A DNA stretch of 64,000 bases. Source: an uncultured Acidimicrobiaceae bacterium (GTDB lineage: Bacteria > Actinomycetota > Acidimicrobiia > Acidimicrobiales > Aldehydirespiratoraceae). The stretch covers positions 3,844 through 67,843 of the forward strand of contig CAJWHS010000001.1 of assembly GCA_913041415.1 (NCBI GenBank). The letters run 5' to 3'. Shown one piece after another: positions 16,175 through 22,101 of the stretch; within the stretch, counting starts at the first letter, position 1; each line of letters opens with the position of its first letter. A program made the translations under genes and the position numbers. The notes below the pieces were generated by a model that saw only the letters and a program-made list of their open reading frames with translations, ran no database searches and had not been told where the DNA came from.

Positions 16175-16999
16175 TCAGCCGATCGGCTCGAGTGAGGTCA
16201 CCCACCACTCGTATTCTTCGGTGTAGCCGGCATCGCCGAGGGGGGTGTCGAGCACGAACTCGTAGGTACGCCGCTCCTGCACCGTCATCCCCGTCGCCAC
16301 CTCCACCCACAGTTCGATGAATTCCACATTGTCGGGGTGATCGCCTTCGACGAGTTCGGCAGTGAAAACGATCACCTCACGCTCCTCGCCAGCAATCACG
16401 CGCACCACGCGTTCGGTGGTGACGGCACGATCGGCGACGGAGGTCTCGCTCTGACAACGCCATGACGTGGCATCAACCGACACGGGACTCGCGCTGCAGG
16501 AACGAACGGCGAGGTCGTCGAGTCCGAAGAAGCTGTGGAAGATCCGCTCGGTTCCGAGTTCGATGCCGTTTTCGGTCTCGCAGAACTCGAGGCTTTGCCA
16601 ACGCTCGACGACAAAGTCGGTTCGGATTTCAACGCCACACTCGACCGGTGTGACGGTGACGAATCCCTCGTCGGGGTACGTCCGCTCGGCGCCGGTGGCG
16701 AGATCCAGCTGCTCGCCACCCCGCAACGCCACCGGGTAGACACCGGGTTTCGGCAGGGGAACTCCCGCCGTCGCGGGTTCGGTCGGCACTGTGGTGATCG
16801 TCGTGGTGGTCGTCAAGGTGGTCGCCGGCTCGCTGGAGCCGTCGGCCCCACCGTCCTCTACGGCGCGCTCGTGGCGATCGACGACCTCAGCGACGCTGAT
16901 CTCGGTTGTCGTCGTCCGCAAGGCGCGTACGCCAACGACGCCAACGGCCAGCACGAGTGCGGCCAAGAACAGGAGTGTCCGACGGGAGGGACGGGTCAT
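16175..16999 (-). CDS. Hypothetical N-terminally anchored/secreted protein
   Basis: Internal ATG at 16999 gives MTRPSRRTLLFLAALVLAVGVVGV (signal/anchor), then a Thr-rich linker. The upstream part of the track ORF looks non-coding. Confidence 0.5.
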   Translation of the reverse strand: MTRPSRRTLLFLAALVLAVGVVGVRALRTTTTEISVAEVVDRHERAVEDGGADGSSEPATTLTTTTTITTVPTEPATAGVPLPKPGVYPVALRGGEQLDLATGAERTYPDEGFVTVTPVECGVEIRTDFVVERWQSLEFCETENGIELGTERIFHSFFGLDDLAVRSCSASPVSVDATSWRCQSETSVADRAVTTERVVRVIAGEEREVIVFTAELVEGDHPDNVEFIELWVEVATGMTVQERRTYEFVLDTPLGDAGYTEEYEWWVTSLEPIG

Positions 17000-17271
17000 A
17001 AGCGAGATCCTTAAGGGGCGTTTTGGGAGTGTCGACGACTGGAGTGGACAGCTCTGAGCAGAGCCGCTTGCGCTGAGCTTGCCACCACCCAGCTGGCACG
17101 TTGTGCACAGCCACCAGCTCGGCGAGTGCGGCGTCCACCAGGGCTTAACGCCGCGCCCCGACCAGATTTCGGAGATTGAGCAGAAGGACCGGGTCAGGAG
17201 TAGCGACGTTTCGCTGCACGTTGTGGATCTTGACCGACCACGCCTTGCCAAACCGAACCCTCCGGAGGCGC

Positions 17272-17370
17272 CAAAACAACCGCACGCCGGCCCAGGGGGG
17301 AGGGCCGGCGTGGGTGCAGGGAGCCCTTCGGTGCGGTGTTGGGGGGGGGAGCAACACTGCACCGACTGTC
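17272..17370 (-). ncRNA. 6C-type small RNA candidate
   Basis: On the minus strand, hairpin A (17329-17364) has a 6+5 bp stem with one A-C mismatch and the loop GCUCCCCCCCCC. Hairpin B (17283-17312) has a perfect 11-bp GC stem and the loop UCCCCCCU, followed 2 nt later by GUUGUUUUGG, which fits an intrinsic terminator. Two C-rich loops are the defining trait of actinobacterial 6C RNA. Confidence 0.55.
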
Positions 17371-17635
17371 AGGGCAACCCGTTCGAGATCGGACAACGCT
17401 CACTGCCAGGGGGGTATGGGGACGGCGGCGGTCGTGGTTTCAGCGATCTCGACCGATGTATTCAGGTCGTGGTCTTCGTCTTGATGGCTATTTTCTCCTG
17501 AATGAGGGATGGTTGGACGGTGCCGGGGGAAGCACCATCAGCGGGAATGTTGACCAACCACAACAAGGTCAAACACAACCGACGCATTTTTCTGGCGGGA
17601 CATGGTCGGGCGCGTCCGACCAGACTGGGGGGACT

Positions 17636-19183
17636 GTGAACTCCGACCGTGGACCGCTGTTTGAGATCGACGCCATAGCCGACGGCCATGCACTCCCCCG
17701 CGTGCTCATTGCGGCACTCGAGGAGACCAGTTCACCGGTCTGCATCACCACCGCCGACCTTGATGCGCCCGGCCCCACGATCGTGTACGTCAACCCGGCC
17801 TACAGCCAGATGACCCGCCGCAACCGCGCCGATGTGATCGGCCGATCCCCGCGAATCATGCAAGGGCCGCTCACCGACCGTGCCGTCCTCGATCGTCTCC
17901 GAGATGATCTCGCCGGCGGGCGGCCCTTCAGCGGCGAGACGATCAACTACCGCGCCGACGGCGAACCGTTCCACATCGCATGGAGCATCGACCCAGTGCT
18001 CGACGATCACGGTGTTGCCACCCACTATGTGGCAACCCAGCGAGATGTCACCGCCGAGGTTGTTGCGGAGCGGGTGCGTCTCGCCGAGGAGGGTCTCGAC
18101 ACTGCGCTCGTCGATGCACTCGGCTCGCCCTCGGACACCGAGGCTGCGCTTGCGCTCCTGCTCGACGCAGTCGCCGTCGGCGCAGGACGAGTCACCGGCT
18201 ACGGAACGGCCGAAGTGACATTGCGAGATCCGGCGCTCGGGCCGCTCCGAGCGAGCGCTGACACCAGTGCCGAGCCGCCGACGAATCCCAACGTCACCGT
18301 CGAGGTTCGAGTCCCGATGACGCGGGTCGATGGCGTGACGATCGGAAGAATCACCATCGGAAACCTCCGCGTCGACGAGCGCAACATGATCGATCGACCG
18401 AGCCTCAACCGGGTCGCCGAGCGGGCGGCAGCGGTAATCACCGGTCTTGCCGAGTACCAGCGTCAGCGGCGCACTGCCCTTCGCCTGCAGGAGGCGATGC
18501 TCCCCCGGGTCGATGTAGCGCCCGACGGCTTCGAGATCGTCAGTCGCTACATCCCCGGCGACGATGGCGTCTACGTCGGCGGCGACTGGTTCGACGTGAT
18601 CGAGACGCCAACCGCCATCGTCCTTGTCGTGGGTGACGTGAGCGGCCACGGCATCGAAGCCGCCACCACCATGGCGCGGCTCCAGATACTCACTGCCGCT
18701 GAGATCCGAGCGGGGCGGCCGATCGATCAGGTTTTCGACGTTCTCGACCGTGCGTGCCGCGACGACGCCACGATGGCCACGATGACACTCGCCACGATCT
18801 CGACCGGCAGCGAGGAAGCCCTGATCTGGTCGGCCGGACACCTTCCGCCGGTTTGCTTTGGGCCCAGTGGCGCGACGCTGGTCTCGGTTTGCCCGACCCC
18901 ACCGCTCGGACATCTACGGGGCGAACAACCAACCGCCACGACCACACCGCTCTCTGATGGCGAGAGCCTGCTCTTCTTCACCGACGGACTCGTCGAGCAA
19001 CGGCGGGAGCCCCTCCCCGAGGGACTCGATCGCCTCTGTGCTGCGCTCGCACGCGCCGTTGGCCCACTCGACGACATCGTCGATTCGGTCATCGCGTCTC
19101 GCAGCACCGAGGACGATACGGCGGTCGTGGCCGTTCGGCGGCGCCCGTCATCCGAGGAGGAAGAATCGCTATCACCTCGCTAG
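17636..19183 (+). CDS. PAS(LOV-like)-GAF-like-PP2C (SpoIIE/RsbU-type) phosphatase
   Basis: A GTG start at 17636 is assumed, since codons upstream end in A/T. The LOV-like block reads IVYVNPAYSQMT...GRSPRIMQG...INYRADGEPF...ATQRDVT. PP2C motifs are GGDWFDV and VGDVSGHG. Confidence 0.8.
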   Translation: MNSDRGPLFEIDAIADGHALPRVLIAALEETSSPVCITTADLDAPGPTIVYVNPAYSQMTRRNRADVIGRSPRIMQGPLTDRAVLDRLRDDLAGGRPFSGETINYRADGEPFHIAWSIDPVLDDHGVATHYVATQRDVTAEVVAERVRLAEEGLDTALVDALGSPSDTEAALALLLDAVAVGAGRVTGYGTAEVTLRDPALGPLRASADTSAEPPTNPNVTVEVRVPMTRVDGVTIGRITIGNLRVDERNMIDRPSLNRVAERAAAVITGLAEYQRQRRTALRLQEAMLPRVDVAPDGFEIVSRYIPGDDGVYVGGDWFDVIETPTAIVLVVGDVSGHGIEAATTMARLQILTAAEIRAGRPIDQVFDVLDRACRDDATMATMTLATISTGSEEALIWSAGHLPPVCFGPSGATLVSVCPTPPLGHLRGEQPTATTTPLSDGESLLFFTDGLVEQRREPLPEGLDRLCAALARAVGPLDDIVDSVIASRSTEDDTAVVAVRRRPSSEEEESLSPR

Positions 19184-19192
19184 TCTCCGCTC

Positions 19193-19513
19193 ATGGCTGC
19201 TGAGCTGCTCGTTGACGAACCAGGCCCCGATCTTCTCCGCGTGGTCGGAGAGATCGACACCCACACCGCCCCGACGCTTGCGGAGCGGCTTGCCGACGTT
19301 CCGGCTCACATGGCACTCGGCATCGACCTCACCAACACGAGTTTCATCTCGTCCGCAGGTCTCGCCGTGCTGCTCGCTGCTGCAGAACGACTCGAAGCTG
19401 GTGGCGGCTCGCTCCGCCTCCTCGGCGCAAGCGAGACCGTGGTCCGGCTGCTCGAGCTGTCAGGCCTCGCAGGCCGGCTGCCGCTCGCCGACGAGCTCGG
19501 CGACAACCACTGA
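19193..19513 (+). CDS. STAS-domain anti-sigma-factor antagonist (RsbV/SpoIIAA-like)
   Basis: 106 aa. DLTNTSFISSAGLAVLL resembles the phosphorylatable DSSG loop, followed by RLLGASETVVRLLELSGL. Confidence 0.85.
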   Translation: MAAELLVDEPGPDLLRVVGEIDTHTAPTLAERLADVPAHMALGIDLTNTSFISSAGLAVLLAAAERLEAGGGSLRLLGASETVVRLLELSGLAGRLPLADELGDNH

Positions 19514-19873
19514 CCGACCATTCTCGGTCCGCAGCCGCAGATCGGCGCTGAGCGCCGCCACGATTCGCAAACCGCGGCCCCGCGCACCCGACTCGGCCCA
19601 CGCGCTCGCGAGCACAGGCTCCTCGGCCCCACGGTCGTTGACGACCTCTACTCGCAAGGTCGGACCCTCAGCCACCACAGTCAGATCGATCGCCGGAGCG
19701 TCGGTGTGGTCGATTGCGTTGGCAACGAGTTCGGTGACCACGATGTCGACATCGACCGACGGCGGTCGATCAAGGTCGGGTCGGGCATTGAGCCACGCTC
19801 GAACCTCGTGTCGAAGCGACGACAGATCGAGGTGCGACGGAGGAATCGACGCGTGGAATGAGGCGGCAGACAT
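19460..19873 (-). CDS. RsbW/SpoIIAB-type anti-sigma serine kinase (HATPase_c)
   Basis: 137 aa with N-box VVTELVANAIDH, G1-like NDRGAEEP and G2 GRGLRIV. Confidence 0.8.
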   Translation of the reverse strand: MSAASFHASIPPSHLDLSSLRHEVRAWLNARPDLDRPPSVDVDIVVTELVANAIDHTDAPAIDLTVVAEGPTLRVEVVNDRGAEEPVLASAWAESGARGRGLRIVAALSADLRLRTENGRSVVVAELVGERQPACEA

Positions 19874-19976
19874 GACATGAGAAGTCTTGCCGTTCCGGAC
19901 GTCGATGAAACCAATAGCTGAGAGTCAGCCCCTTCACGACAGGTACGCTGTCGCCAATGTCCCTTGGAGTTACGTG

Positions 19977-20357
19977 ATGTCGCCGCCCCCCACCCCAGCC
20001 GTTCCCGACGAAGCGGTCGTCGTCTCGGTGCCCGCCGACCCCGCCTACTTTCGTGTGCTTCGTCTCACCGCTGTGGTGGTCGCCGGCGAGCTCCTCGATG
20101 TGGAAGCGGTCGAGGACGCCCAGATCGGCGTCGAGGAGGCGGCGTCGATCCTGCTCGACGCAGGGCCGACCAGTCGGATTGAGGCCTCCTTCTGGTGCTC
20201 GAACGAGCGGCTCAGCGTCCGGCTTCGAAGCGGGACCGGCCCCGTGGCGGACACTGCTGACGATTTCCGCCGCACGATCCTCTCGGCCGTCGTCGACAGC
20301 GTAGCGATCGACCACGTCGCCGGCGCAACGACGGTCGAGTTCGATAAATCGGCGTGA
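19977..20357 (+). CDS. UsfX/RsbW-like anti-sigma factor with a degenerate ATP site
   Basis: 126 aa from ATG 19977. It has the RsbW-like layout, but the N-box position reads VEEAASILLD with no Asn. Its stop overlaps the sigma gene's GTG (GTGA at 20354-20357). Confidence 0.6.
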   Translation: MSPPPTPAVPDEAVVVSVPADPAYFRVLRLTAVVVAGELLDVEAVEDAQIGVEEAASILLDAGPTSRIEASFWCSNERLSVRLRSGTGPVADTADDFRRTILSAVVDSVAIDHVAGATTVEFDKSA

Positions 20358-21046
20358 GCGACGCGCCACTTGACGACCGTTTCGTCCGCTTTGCCGCTAA
20401 CGGCGACGAGACGTTGCGCAACGAACTGGTGCTCGAGCATCAGGGGCTTGCGATCGCGTTCGCTCGCCGTTACGCCCGCAGCGGGCGTGACAATGATCTT
20501 GAACAAATCGCCCTCGAGGCGCTGATCCTCGCCATCAACCGCTTCGACCCCGAGCGAGAAGTTCGCTTTTCGACCTACGCCGCTCGAGTCATCGATGGTC
20601 GACTCAAGCAGCACTTCCGCGACGACGGTTGGGACATCCGGGTTCCCCGCTCGATCAAACAGCTCGCGGTCGCCGTCCGCTCGACAACCGGCGAGCTGAC
20701 CAACGAACTGGGCAGAGTGCCGTTACCCGCAGAGCTCGCCGACCGTCTCGGTGTCACGGTCGACCAGATCGCACTTGCGCTCGACGCAGCCAACGCCCAC
20801 CGAGCCGGCGAACTCGATACCGATCCATCCCACGACGAAACATGGGATGTCGTCGACACCGGCCTCGTTGTTCCCGAACTGCTCGACGGGCTGCCCGAGC
20901 AGGAACGTGCGGTCGTCTCCCTCCGGTTCTTCGGCGAGCTCTCCCAGAGTCAGATTGCGGAGCGGATCGGCGTCAGCCAAATGCAGGTGTCGCGCCTGCT
21001 TCGTCGTGCCCTGGTGAGACTCCGCACCGAGATCGGCGACGCCTGA
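20354..21046 (+). CDS. SigF/SigB-family group 3 sigma-70 factor
   Basis: Region 2 reads DLEQIALEALILAINRFDPEREVRFSTYA. Region 4 HTH reads SQSQIAERIGVSQMQVSRLLRRAL. Confidence 0.9.
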   Translation: MSDAPLDDRFVRFAANGDETLRNELVLEHQGLAIAFARRYARSGRDNDLEQIALEALILAINRFDPEREVRFSTYAARVIDGRLKQHFRDDGWDIRVPRSIKQLAVAVRSTTGELTNELGRVPLPAELADRLGVTVDQIALALDAANAHRAGELDTDPSHDETWDVVDTGLVVPELLDGLPEQERAVVSLRFFGELSQSQIAERIGVSQMQVSRLLRRALVRLRTEIGDA

Positions 21047-21351
21047 CAGAGTGGCGAGTCGGCGTTCGTGCCGGCATGATGGCCGTGGCGGGCGGATCAA
21101 CCTGGGTCAGAGGGCAGCATTGACATGCAGCTTCCCCACACCCCCCTCGGCGTAGGGCCCCCAAGGAGCAGAGTTCGACTCACACCGAGACGTCTCGCCA
21201 CCACCATCCTGATGGACCCGACCGCCACAGCGACCCTCACCCTAGGGAAGGTCGCATGTGAACGAAAAGGGAACTTCATGTGGATTGCGCGGGGATTTCG
21301 CGGCGCTTGTCCACAAGCGTTCACAACCCCGTCGCGGTACGGTCAATCTTC

Positions 21352-22101
21352 GTGCGCCAACTGCTTCCCACCCCACTCGACGCGGTCGACCCGCTCACCC
21401 TCTATCCCTTCGATCATCGCCCCCGCCCGAGCAGCCGACCGTGGCTCATGGCGAACATGGTGGCGAGTGTCGATGGCGCGATCGCGATCGACGGTGTGAG
21501 CGGTGGGCTCGGCGGTGATGGTGACTCGATGGCCTTCCGGGCGATCCGAGCGAGCTGCGACTGGATCGTGGCGGCGGCGGGCACCATTCGGGCCGAGCGC
21601 TATCGGATCCCCCGAGCCACGGAGGAAACCGCAGCAGTGCGCGTCGTCACGGGCCGCAGTGAAGCACCGCGACTTGCGGTGGTGAGCGCTTCGGTCGATC
21701 TCGACCCCGAACTCCCGCTCTTCGCAGACCAGCGCGACGGCGAGGCCTGGCCGCTCGTGATCACCGGCGCAAACCCGCCGGCGGATCGCGTCGAGGCCCT
21801 CGAGGGACGAGCCGAGTGGCATCACACCGATACGGAACGCCCGACCGCTGAGGGTGTGCTTGCTGCGCTCGGCGAACGGGGTGCGGACGTGGTGCTCGCC
21901 GAAGGTGGCCCGATGTTCAATGGTCAGCTGGTCGACAGCGGCTTCATCGACGAACTCTGCCTTTCGATCTCGCCACACCTGGTGGGCGGAGGCTCCAGCC
22001 GTATCGTCAACGGAAGCGCAGCCACGATCCCTGCCGACCTGCGGCTGGATCGCTTGCTCGAACACGACGATGCACTATTCGCCCGATACGTCCGGGCGTG
22101 A
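21352..22101 (+). CDS. RibD C-terminal domain / dihydrofolate reductase-like pyrimidine reductase family protein
   Basis: Motifs NMVASVDGAIA and VLAEGGPMFNGQLVDSGFIDELCLSISPHLVGGG. GTG start assumed at 21352. Confidence 0.7.
   Translation: MRQLLPTPLDAVDPLTLYPFDHRPRPSSRPWLMANMVASVDGAIAIDGVSGGLGGDGDSMAFRAIRASCDWIVAAAGTIRAERYRIPRATEETAAVRVVTGRSEAPRLAVVSASVDLDPELPLFADQRDGEAWPLVITGANPPADRVEALEGRAEWHHTDTERPTAEGVLAALGERGADVVLAEGGPMFNGQLVDSGFIDELCLSISPHLVGGGSSRIVNGSAATIPADLRLDRLLEHDDALFARYVRA

Follow-up and report, generated by a model that had tools for sequence, protein, structure and literature searches.

The locus considered here raises the question of what a LOV-like PAS domain that has no adduct-forming cysteine could sense, and where its signal would go. 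It lies in a 64,000-nucleotide stretch of DNA from an uncultured Acidimicrobiaceae bacterium (contig CAJWHS010000001.1 of assembly GCA_913041415.1, positions 3,844 to 67,843 of the forward strand), hereafter the window, to which all coordinates refer. An open reading frame (ORF) on the forward strand (17336-19183) encodes a PAS domain joined to a SpoIIE/PP2C phosphatase domain (Pfam PAS_9, E = 9e-15; SpoIIE, E = 1.3e-33). The frame is open from 17336, and translation likely starts at GTG 17636, since a G-rich Shine-Dalgarno-like run lies directly upstream and the same start is annotated for a near-identical protein (P0001); the gene so defined (17636-19183, +) specifies 515 amino acids. An earlier note, made by eye from the DNA, had described residues ~21-139 as a LOV-like PAS domain with proline in place of the photoactive cysteine. 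The analysis presented here assigns this domain (residues 21-139, 17696-18052, +; core strands at residues 35-137) to a large and distinct subfamily, termed Pro-type, that adjoins the canonical LOV clade but stands outside it, and in which proline at the cysteine site is, to judge from the alignments, a near-invariant character of the family and not an individual loss.

The likeness of residues 21-139 to LOV domains is far above chance, as the earlier note had held. Among NCBIfam models, the PAS region is matched best by those of LOV proteins, namely a blue-light histidine kinase (1.6e-21) and the YtvA family (4e-20), with NifL behind at 7e-15. Among the sequences of the PDB, the best single-domain matches returned by phmmer are likewise LOV domains, MrLOVe (9vf7) and CagFbFP (~78 bits, E 1e-20 to 5e-21), and the alignments to LOV chains are gapless between the cysteine position and the C-terminal glutamine. 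An AlphaFold2 model of the domain, built on 34 homologues, has a mean predicted local distance difference test score (pLDDT) of 92.5, and the top 50 Foldseek matches of this model in the PDB are all LOV domains, with 40-43% identity and, for CagFbFP, a root-mean-square deviation (rmsd) of 1.3 Å over 107 columns. The fold is shared with canonical LOV domains, represented by MrLOVe, CagFbFP/Cagg_3753 (6rhg), Brucella LOV-HK, YtvA and phototropin LOV2 (rmsd 1.3-2.5 Å, 40-43% identity), as are the QGPxTD, NYRxDG and QxDVT motifs and the flanking N-terminal and J-alpha helices. Canonical LOV and Pro-type domains also share a range of outputs, comprising histidine kinases, cyclases, helix-turn-helix (HTH) regulators and SpoIIE phosphatases. 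Unlike canonical LOV domains, the window domain has neither the adduct-forming cysteine nor the second flavin-binding asparagine, and it falls outside the Cys-type clade in both profile comparisons and neighbor-joining trees.

These departures are best seen residue by residue. The AsLOV2 numbering used here equals the protein numbering plus 378 across positions 450-513, the alignments themselves being computed. The adduct cysteine C450 corresponds in the alignments to LOV chains to Pro72 (codon CCG, 17849-17851, +), within the motif GRSPRIMQG, exactly where the substitution had been placed before. The phosphate-binding arginine pair is kept (R451 as Arg73, R467 as Arg89), as are the glutamine pair (Q454 as Gln76, Q513 as Gln135) and the first flavin-ring asparagine (N482 as Asn104), which also agrees with the original description. 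These five residues are invariant or nearly so in the query and 52 orthologues, and Pro72 is invariant in the same 52. The second flavin asparagine, N492, is lost; its position had been read as alanine and must be corrected to Ile114 (ATC, 17975-17977), because the gapless alignments pair 'pfHIAWsidp' with 'pfWNDLriap' and 'pfWNQLsisp'. Asparagine occupies this position in 77/84 domains of the LOV sample described below. The tripeptide Ile114-Ala115-Trp116 (17975-17983, +) also supplies a Trp for the pocket residue F494, and further replacements are found at G511 (Ala133) and N449 (Ser71). The hallmarks of a canonical LOV site are thus divided, with the arginine pair and the Gln454 and Gln513 equivalents present, and the adduct cysteine and the complete pair of ring asparagines absent. 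Seven residues, F494 included, have been listed around the isoalloxazine ring of AsLOV2 (PMC3867380); T418, I427, I466 and L496 are kept or conservatively replaced in the window domain, V416 and F494 are changed to Cys and Trp, respectively, and N425 falls within an altered hairpin.

The proline is not peculiar to this protein. It is invariant in 34/34 homologues found with the PAS segment, which belong to the Actinomycetota, Acidobacteriota and Alphaproteobacteria (Neorhizobium, Sphingomonas, Salinarimonas). An exhaustive HMMER search of 1.84 billion representatives returned 59,465 matches, and the 400 PAS domains of the best 150 proteins were re-aligned. Within this sample of best matches, the residue at the cysteine position is Pro in 226 of the 400 domains, Cys in 84 and His in 44; all domains scoring above ~92 bits, and all of the roughly 120 that score best, are Pro-type, and the best true LOV domain scores 79 bits. 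In a set of PAS-PP2C homologues, 97/114 PAS domains carry the proline. The Pro-type consensus reads LDxPGPxIVYVN ... G[KRQ][TS]PR[ILF]LQGPxTD ... R ... [VI]NYRKDG ... [FY]x[VIL]EW.I.P ... [AS]xQRD[VI]T, to be compared with GRNCRFLQG ... FWN.L ... GxQ for Cys-type LOV. In looser form, the Pro-type signature is LDxPGPxIVYVN ... G[KRQ][TS]PR[IL][LM]QGPxTD ... [VI]NYRxDG ... [FY]x[VIL]xW ... [AS]xQxD[VI]T. The Pro-type domains differ in having Thr or Ser for the Asn before the Cys, Val, Ile or Leu for N492 (position 105 of the 156-residue segment used in the search), Trp, or sometimes Leu, for F494 (position 107, mostly Trp), Ala or Ser for G511, and an A-beta/B-beta hairpin two residues longer. 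The query displays the entire signature (S71-P72-R73, I114, W116, A133 and the hairpin 'DLDAPGPT').

Profiles and distances lead to the same placement. Three type-specific hidden Markov models (HMMs) were built, the Pro-type model only from members that share less than 50% identity with it; with the cysteine column masked, the query scores 136 bits against the Pro-type, 96 against Cys-type LOV and 70 against the His-type NifL/Aer model. With that column excluded from the distances, the nearest neighbor is Pro-type for 213/222 Pro-type domains and Cys-type for 78/81 Cys-type domains. In neighbor-joining trees, Cys-type LOV separates cleanly (best F 0.95, with a bootstrap mean of 0.94 in 40 replicates) and the His-type domains also form a split (F 0.88), whereas no split of Pro from Cys plus His was recovered (best F 0.85), leaving the Pro-type as the remaining backbone, which may be a clade or a grade. 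The His-type set has His at the cysteine position in 44/44 domains, Trp at the second-Arg position in 42/44 and Val at the N492 position in 38/44. Its motifs (GxxH..., Trp for the second Arg, YWV) we take to be those of NifL, MmoS PAS-A and Aer, and FAD-binding MmoS PAS-A does fall inside it; the query, with Pro and Arg at the first two positions, does not belong there. The Pro-type family is accordingly placed between LOV and the flavin adenine dinucleotide (FAD) sensors and, on the favored explanation, is an old and widespread sister subfamily of LOV domains. The view of the domain as a LOV that lost its cysteine therefore holds in part: it is a LOV-like PAS domain without Cys, but it is a member of a subfamily of its own. 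A proper profile alignment had been named as the test that could place it among non-LOV PAS domains, and it does so by half, in that the best profile is Pro-type and the nearest characterized neighbor is Cys-type LOV. Neither the near-invariance of the proline across the family nor a nearby cysteine, Cys36, had been noticed before. Five histidine kinases (P0265, P0268, P0275, P0278, P0279) carry a Cys-type LOV domain (~135-280) and a Pro-type PAS domain (~400-590) in one chain, which suggests that the two domains sense different things or have distinct roles.

Whether a Pro-type domain binds a flavin is central to any functional reading, and on the pattern of conservation it probably does, since the polar residues of the flavin site (two Arg, two Gln and one Asn) are kept and co-conserved. 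In the numbering of the 156-residue segment, R64 is kept in 74% of Pro-type domains and 90% of the true LOV sample, Q67 in 84% and 98%, R80 in 70% and 43%, N95 in 93% and 100%, and Q126 in 68% and 62%, so that the site appears about equally well preserved in both. All five residues are kept together in 128/224 Pro-type domains, where 68 would be expected under independence, and two or fewer are found in 36 (~16%) against 13 expected, although common descent inflates this statistic, as does the ranking of the domains by their similarity to a query in which all five are present. KCNH PAS domains, which descend from flavin binders and have no flavin, have such polar residues replaced by hydrophobic ones, and flavin-binding PAS domains are reported to have a single origin (PMC10468136). 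In the LOV-containing PAS cluster of Xing et al. (2023), the cysteine is present in only 57%. The loss of N492 is compatible with a bound flavin, because FAD-binding MmoS PAS-A and 38/44 His-type domains have Val at this position. A natural LOV-like domain with Pro for Cys, BAT-LOV* of the haloarchaeal bacterio-opsin activator, binds FAD, flavin mononucleotide (FMN) or riboflavin and shifts its conformation on reduction, the only natural Cys-less LOV* for which this was demonstrated (Yee et al. 2015; PMC4682037).

A long helix that resembles J-alpha leaves the PAS core in the AlphaFold2 models (residues 139-163, 18050-18124, +) and is followed by a small alpha/beta module (residues 168-252, 18137-18391, +), a long linker helix in the AlphaFold2 model (residues 254-288, 18395-18499, +) and the PP2C/SpoIIE domain (residues 299-502, 18530-19141, +), an order displayed by a full-length model with a pLDDT of 89.8. 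The middle module gave no Pfam GAF match even at E up to 10; it is probably a reduced GAF domain, because the corresponding region of a relative (P0260, 35% identity) is a true GAF_2 domain and the predicted fold agrees. The SpoIIE domain scores 117 bits against a Pfam cut-off of 25 and contains the motifs GGDW, VGDVSGHG, TDG and DD; GGDW, GDVSGHG, TDG and DD, as well as the metal-binding PP2C aspartates D317, D334, D450, D493 and D494, are invariant in 52 orthologues. The closest solved PP2C fold is the RsbU domain of Rv1364c (3ke6, 31% identity), and RssB also matches. The proposed fusion to a PP2C phosphatase is thereby borne out, the connection running through the GAF-like module and the long helix, and the enzyme is predicted to be a SpoIIE/RsbU-type PPM (PP2C) phosphatase with intact catalytic motifs. 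The same plan, an N-terminal PAS with or without GAF, a helical linker and SpoIIE/PPM, is found in RsbP of Bacillus subtilis, Rv1364c of Mycobacterium tuberculosis and OsaC of Streptomyces coelicolor. In PP2C phosphatases linked to PAS, GAF or receiver domains, control can run through crossing linker helices by which the catalytic domains dimerize, a mechanism demonstrated in RsbU and put forward for RsbP, OsaC and Rv1364c (PMC12143880), and by analogy we infer the same route in the window phosphatase.

The genes that follow point to the destination of the signal. Directly downstream lies a STAS anti-sigma-factor antagonist (19193-19513, +; Pfam STAS 1e-15, TIGR00377 9e-19, both above cut-offs), the likely substrate of the phosphatase, which aligns with RsbV and SpoIIAA and whose Ser54 (19352-19354) aligns with SpoIIAA Ser58. 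A 137-residue HATPase_c_2 protein on the opposite strand (19460-19873, -) resembles RsbW/SpoIIAB-like serine kinases (HATPase_c_2 6e-10, 39.6 bits vs a cut-off of 27.4; RsbA_anti_sig 3e-10) and has both N box and G boxes; it gave no match in the PDB. The STAS and kinase genes are convergent and overlap by 54 nucleotides (19460-19513), as do their counterparts in three related genomes (L001-L003) by 48. A 156-residue protein (19887-20357, +) has weak matches that are confined to the N-terminal part of RsbW, and contains neither the N-box Asn nor recognizable G boxes; a candidate role is that of an anti-sigma factor without kinase activity, which the separate 137-residue protein would supply. 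Its stop overlaps the start of a gene for a SigB/SigF/SigG-type alternative sigma factor (20354-21046, +; TIGR02980 8e-56; Pfam regions 2, 3 and 4), to which it would be translationally coupled; the best family for this factor is SigBFG at 189 bits, below the cut-off of 234.

The order of these five genes is conserved in four genomes (L001-L004), down to 63% identity of the phosphatase, with sigma factors 73-97% identical. The locus thus has a STAS protein with a phosphorylatable Ser, a HATPase_c_2 protein, a SigB/F-group sigma factor and a conserved order, as partner switching calls for. This context gives good support to the earlier suggestion of a sensor wired into a sigma-factor switch, although the specific pairings within the cluster are conjectural. 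The phosphatases of RsbP, Rv1364c and OsaC act on the STAS antagonist of a SigB/F-type sigma factor, and the same arrangement can be read in the window. Rv1364c differs in fusing the phosphatase to anti-sigma and anti-anti-sigma domains, where the window has separate genes for kinase, anti-sigma factor and STAS, and RsbP needs the hydrolase RsbQ (PMC12143880). The PAS domains of all three systems, unlike that of the window, are not LOV-like.

The reading favored here, given a rough probability of 0.5 as a complete model, is that of a redox sensor controlling a sigma factor. It joins what was computed (the fold and subfamily membership, the conserved site, catalytic motifs and gene order) to steps that are conjectured (binding of a flavin, the nature of the stimulus, the sign of regulation and the protein partnerships). 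A flavin, probably FMN, would be bound non-covalently in the inherited site, where two Arg would hold the phosphate, one Gln the ribityl chain and one Asn the ring, and the other Gln would face N5. Because Pro occupies the cysteine site, no LOV thio-adduct could form, and the signal would therefore have to arise from reduction of the flavin, either by reductants of the cell or slowly by light. Once N5 is protonated, Gln135 would re-orient, and the change would pass from the beta-sheet into the J-alpha-like helix and onward through the reduced GAF-like module to the long linker helix, setting the activity of a dimeric PP2C domain. The phosphatase would then remove the phosphate placed on Ser54 of the adjacent STAS protein by the 137-residue kinase, and the STAS protein, once unphosphorylated, would sequester the RsbW-like anti-sigma protein, whereby the SigB/F-type sigma factor is released. 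NifL PAS1, MmoS PAS-A and Aer, FAD-binding sensors of redox state and not of light, likewise have no Cys, a hydrophobic residue (Val) at N492 and Ala, Ser or Gly at G511. These domains differ from that of the window in having His at the cysteine site and Trp for the second Arg, no LQGPxTD motif and usually no Gln.

Several observations weigh against this model. The case for flavin binding is one of conservation logic throughout. No Pro-type structure was found among solved ones, the best PDB matches to the Pro-type profile being Cys-type LOV domains (121 bits), and a literature search turned up no biochemical study of any Pro-type member. A 2026 preprint counts only three naturally Cys-less LOV domains as optically characterized (BAT-LOV, Amb2291 and HsuLOV), and BAT-LOV lies outside the Pro-type subfamily. 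The sole precedent with Pro, BAT-LOV*, bound flavin only modestly when expressed in Escherichia coli (PMC4682037), and it presumably keeps N492, as judged from the search criterion of its study. Four changes in the window domain (C450P, N492I, F494W and G511A) all line the reactive edge of the flavin ring and could shrink or re-shape the pocket. Downstream, the pairing of kinase, anti-sigma factor and STAS protein is drawn from gene order, and the 156-residue protein has one weak RsbW match in the PDB (E 0.16). No SigB/F-type promoter (GTTT-N13-18-GGGTA) occurs anywhere in the window, and hence no case for autoregulation can be made.

The four edge changes lead directly to the first of the alternatives, in which the pocket has switched to some other small molecule, such as a flavin analogue, an anionic or phosphorylated metabolite or a hydrophobic ligand, whose level the phosphatase would report. 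All four lie along the isoalloxazine N5/C4a/O4 edge, which they render bulkier and more hydrophobic (Pro, Ile and Trp, and Ala for Gly), and the near-invariance of Pro, in place of any non-Cys residue, suggests a specific requirement of shape. The proteins that hold a true LOV domain beside a Pro-type PAS domain imply different inputs to the two, and PAS domains of other PP2C regulators bind ligands other than flavin, that of Rv1364c being listed as a fatty-acid binder. Such a switch is nevertheless unlikely, since the residues that would contact the phosphate, the ribityl chain, ring N3/O2 and N5 are kept together, and all of the characterized neighboring clades (LOV, NifL/MmoS-A and Aer) bind flavin, in keeping with the single origin reported for such domains (PMC10468136).

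Somewhat more doubtful is a PAS domain with no cofactor at all, serving as a module for dimerization or partner binding, the phosphatase then taking its cue from a partner protein, as RsbP does from RsbQ, or from the GAF-like module. A structural parallel exists in MmoS PAS-B (3ewk), which has Pro at the LOV cysteine position (GQSPSILDSP) and is cofactor-free, with a collapsed pocket of 88 cubic angstroms, where ~550-750 cubic angstroms are listed for LOV domains (PMC8694187); it is a useful negative control for the notion that Pro implies flavin. This domain has, however, lost R64, Q67 and the NY motif, all of which are retained, invariantly or nearly so, in the window domain and its 52 orthologues, and without a polar ligand there is little to account for Arg, Gln and Asn residues in a buried position. 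In favor of this alternative, partner proteins activate RsbU and RsbP by acting on the linker (PMC12143880), and ~16% of Pro-type domains have lost most of the polar site residues. Against it, no conserved gene of the cluster encodes such a partner, for instance an RsbQ-like hydrolase.

That the domain is a blue-light receptor after all, its flavin photoreduced with Cys36 or Trp116 as donor or bound by Cys36 in a non-canonical adduct, is the least likely of the three alternatives that survive. The semiquinone or adduct so formed would signal as in engineered Cys-less LOV proteins, and Cys-less VVD and YF1 do signal through the neutral semiquinone; Gln135, moreover, is kept. Cys36 (17741-17743, +), the sole cysteine of the PAS core, aligns with AsLOV2 V416, a side chain within 4 Å of the adduct cysteine C450 (PMC3867380). 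The V416 position is Cys in 81/97 Pro-type domains of the PAS-PP2C homologue set, and Leu, Val, Ile or Met in most other Pro-type domains; it is also Cys in 24/72 ordinary LOV domains, where it is not photoactive. A cysteine introduced near the flavin of BAT-LOV* (P188C) greatly speeds photoreduction, but in the same protein a nearby Trp acted as a quencher of the excited flavin, and photoreduction fell (PMC4682037). By analogy, the Cys36 thiol or Trp116 could make the window domain light-responsive, which is offered as a lead only. Light could be a relevant cue, as the host and its close relatives, metagenome-assembled genomes (MAGs) of the Acidimicrobiaceae and Acidimicrobiales, appear to be marine. 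A canonical solution was nonetheless at hand, since the PAS-PP2C homologue search also returned true LOV(Cys)-GAF-SpoIIE proteins from Actinobacteria (Cellulomonas, Frankia and others). A literature search for a relocated cysteine (V416C, I74C) turned up only a multi-site screening variant.

The last alternative, a recently degenerated LOV domain in which an individual Cys-to-Pro loss has left a non-functional or drifting protein, is suggested by the high overall similarity to LOV but is refuted by the proline and its accompanying signature in relatives from several phyla and in 52/52 orthologues, by the 40-bit advantage of the Pro-type over the LOV profile with the cysteine column masked, and by the absence of the FWN and Gly that recent converts (P0269, P0270, P0274, P0277; GRNPRLLAG...FWN...GVQ) keep. 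Five actinobacterial PAS-SpoIIE-HATPase_c_2 proteins (the four just named and P0273), in which FWN and GVQ are kept and GRNPRLLAG or GRGPDLLQG is read, look like true LOV domains that exchanged Cys for Pro independently and recently, in the manner of BAT-LOV*.

Neither the concept of a Cys-less, Pro-bearing LOV-like domain nor the PAS_9-SpoIIE architecture is new, both having been known since 2015. In that year, ~70 natural Cys-less LOV-like domains with Ala, His or Pro at the cysteine site were catalogued, among them three PAS_9-SpoIIE architectures and one PAS_9-PAS_4-PAS_9-SpoIIE, and the Pro-bearing BAT-LOV* was characterized (Yee et al. 2015; PMC4682037). BAT-LOV* and the window domain share Pro at the adduct site, the Arg pair, the Gln454, Asn482 and Gln513 equivalents, and a proposed signaling by flavin reduction. 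With the motif GRNPRFLQG and, by the criterion of its study, all other LOV-conserved residues, taken to include the second Asn, BAT-LOV* looks like a LOV domain with a single change. The window domain differs from it in having Ile at N492, Trp at F494, Ala at G511, Ser at N449 and two additional residues in the hairpin, and it groups with a separate and much larger Pro-type subfamily. Yee et al. (2015) defined LOV* by the presence of all strictly conserved LOV residues except Cys, a definition from which Ile at N492 and Ala at G511 exclude the window domain. A search that demands all LOV-conserved residues would miss the Pro-type domain because N492 is lacking as well.

What appears to be undescribed is the existence of a coherent and very large Pro-type subfamily that is also without N492 and so escapes LOV* searches, and the presence, in the PAS-PP2C lineage, of a conserved cysteine adjoining the vacated adduct site. 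A full-text literature search for Pro-type motif strings (PRILQG, PRIMQG and similar) gave one unrelated match. Few sensor modules are as well understood or as heavily engineered as LOV domains, yet surveys, which usually demand either the cysteine or all of the other conserved residues, pass over a family that outnumbers true LOV domains in the sample of best matches and that is wired to the same outputs of histidine kinases, cyclases, HTH regulators and PP2C phosphatases. Should these domains bind flavin, they would constitute a widespread adduct-free sensor of redox state or slow light, a natural test of the proposal that LOV photoreceptors arose from redox-sensing flavoproteins, and an identified input to the SigB/F-type stress response of uncultured Acidimicrobiia. 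Should they bind none, they would show how far a LOV-like sequence can go without being LOV. The near-invariant Pro and the pocket Trp would be of interest for fluorescent, radical-pair and optogenetic tools.

A bolder synthesis would take the Pro-type as a large class of flavin sensors between NifL/Aer and LOV, the surviving 'pre-LOV' redox grade that gave rise to Cys-based photochemistry. Within the actinobacterial PAS-PP2C lineage, Cys36 beside the vacated adduct site would restore a response to light, through photoreduction or a non-canonical adduct, so that a general-stress sigma factor of apparently marine Acidimicrobiia would answer to both light and redox state. As a whole, this conjunction is distinctly improbable.

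As for the gene and its surroundings, a 100% identical protein (P0185), labelled 'hypothetical protein', is on record from an Acidimicrobiaceae metagenome-assembled genome, and L001-L004, which are MAGs of the Acidimicrobiaceae, Acidimicrobiales and Actinomycetota, have orthologues of the phosphatase at 90% and 63% identity. An Rfam scan of the whole window returned nothing, and a scan for promoters and terminators across 16900-21400 gave one hairpin with a T-run and nothing informative for an operon. This hairpin (17283-17312, -), an 11-bp GC-rich stem followed by the T-run and without an Rfam match, lies inside an unusually long divergent intergenic region (~640 bp) that separates a hypothetical gene from the phosphatase gene. 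A 395-residue ORF (16175-17362, -) has no Pfam match and evolves faster than its neighbors (56-75% identity vs 83-97%); because its match in L004 begins near residue 116, its true start is probably an internal Met that precedes the hydrophobic segment MTRPSRRTLLFLAALVLAVGVVGV. The cluster (17636-21046) has a GC content at third codon positions (GC3) of 0.74-0.79, against ~0.82 for the neighboring genes, a difference judged too small to mean anything, although it misled a GC3-based gene picker into out-of-frame ORFs. The flanking genes are ordinary chromosomal ones, encoding glycolate oxidase GlcDEF, an alkyl sulfatase, a RibD_C reductase, LexA and HflX. The RibD_C-family reductase gene (21280-22101), of a family that includes reductases of the riboflavin pathway, directly follows the sigma factor gene and is conserved in L001-L003, with no match in L004.

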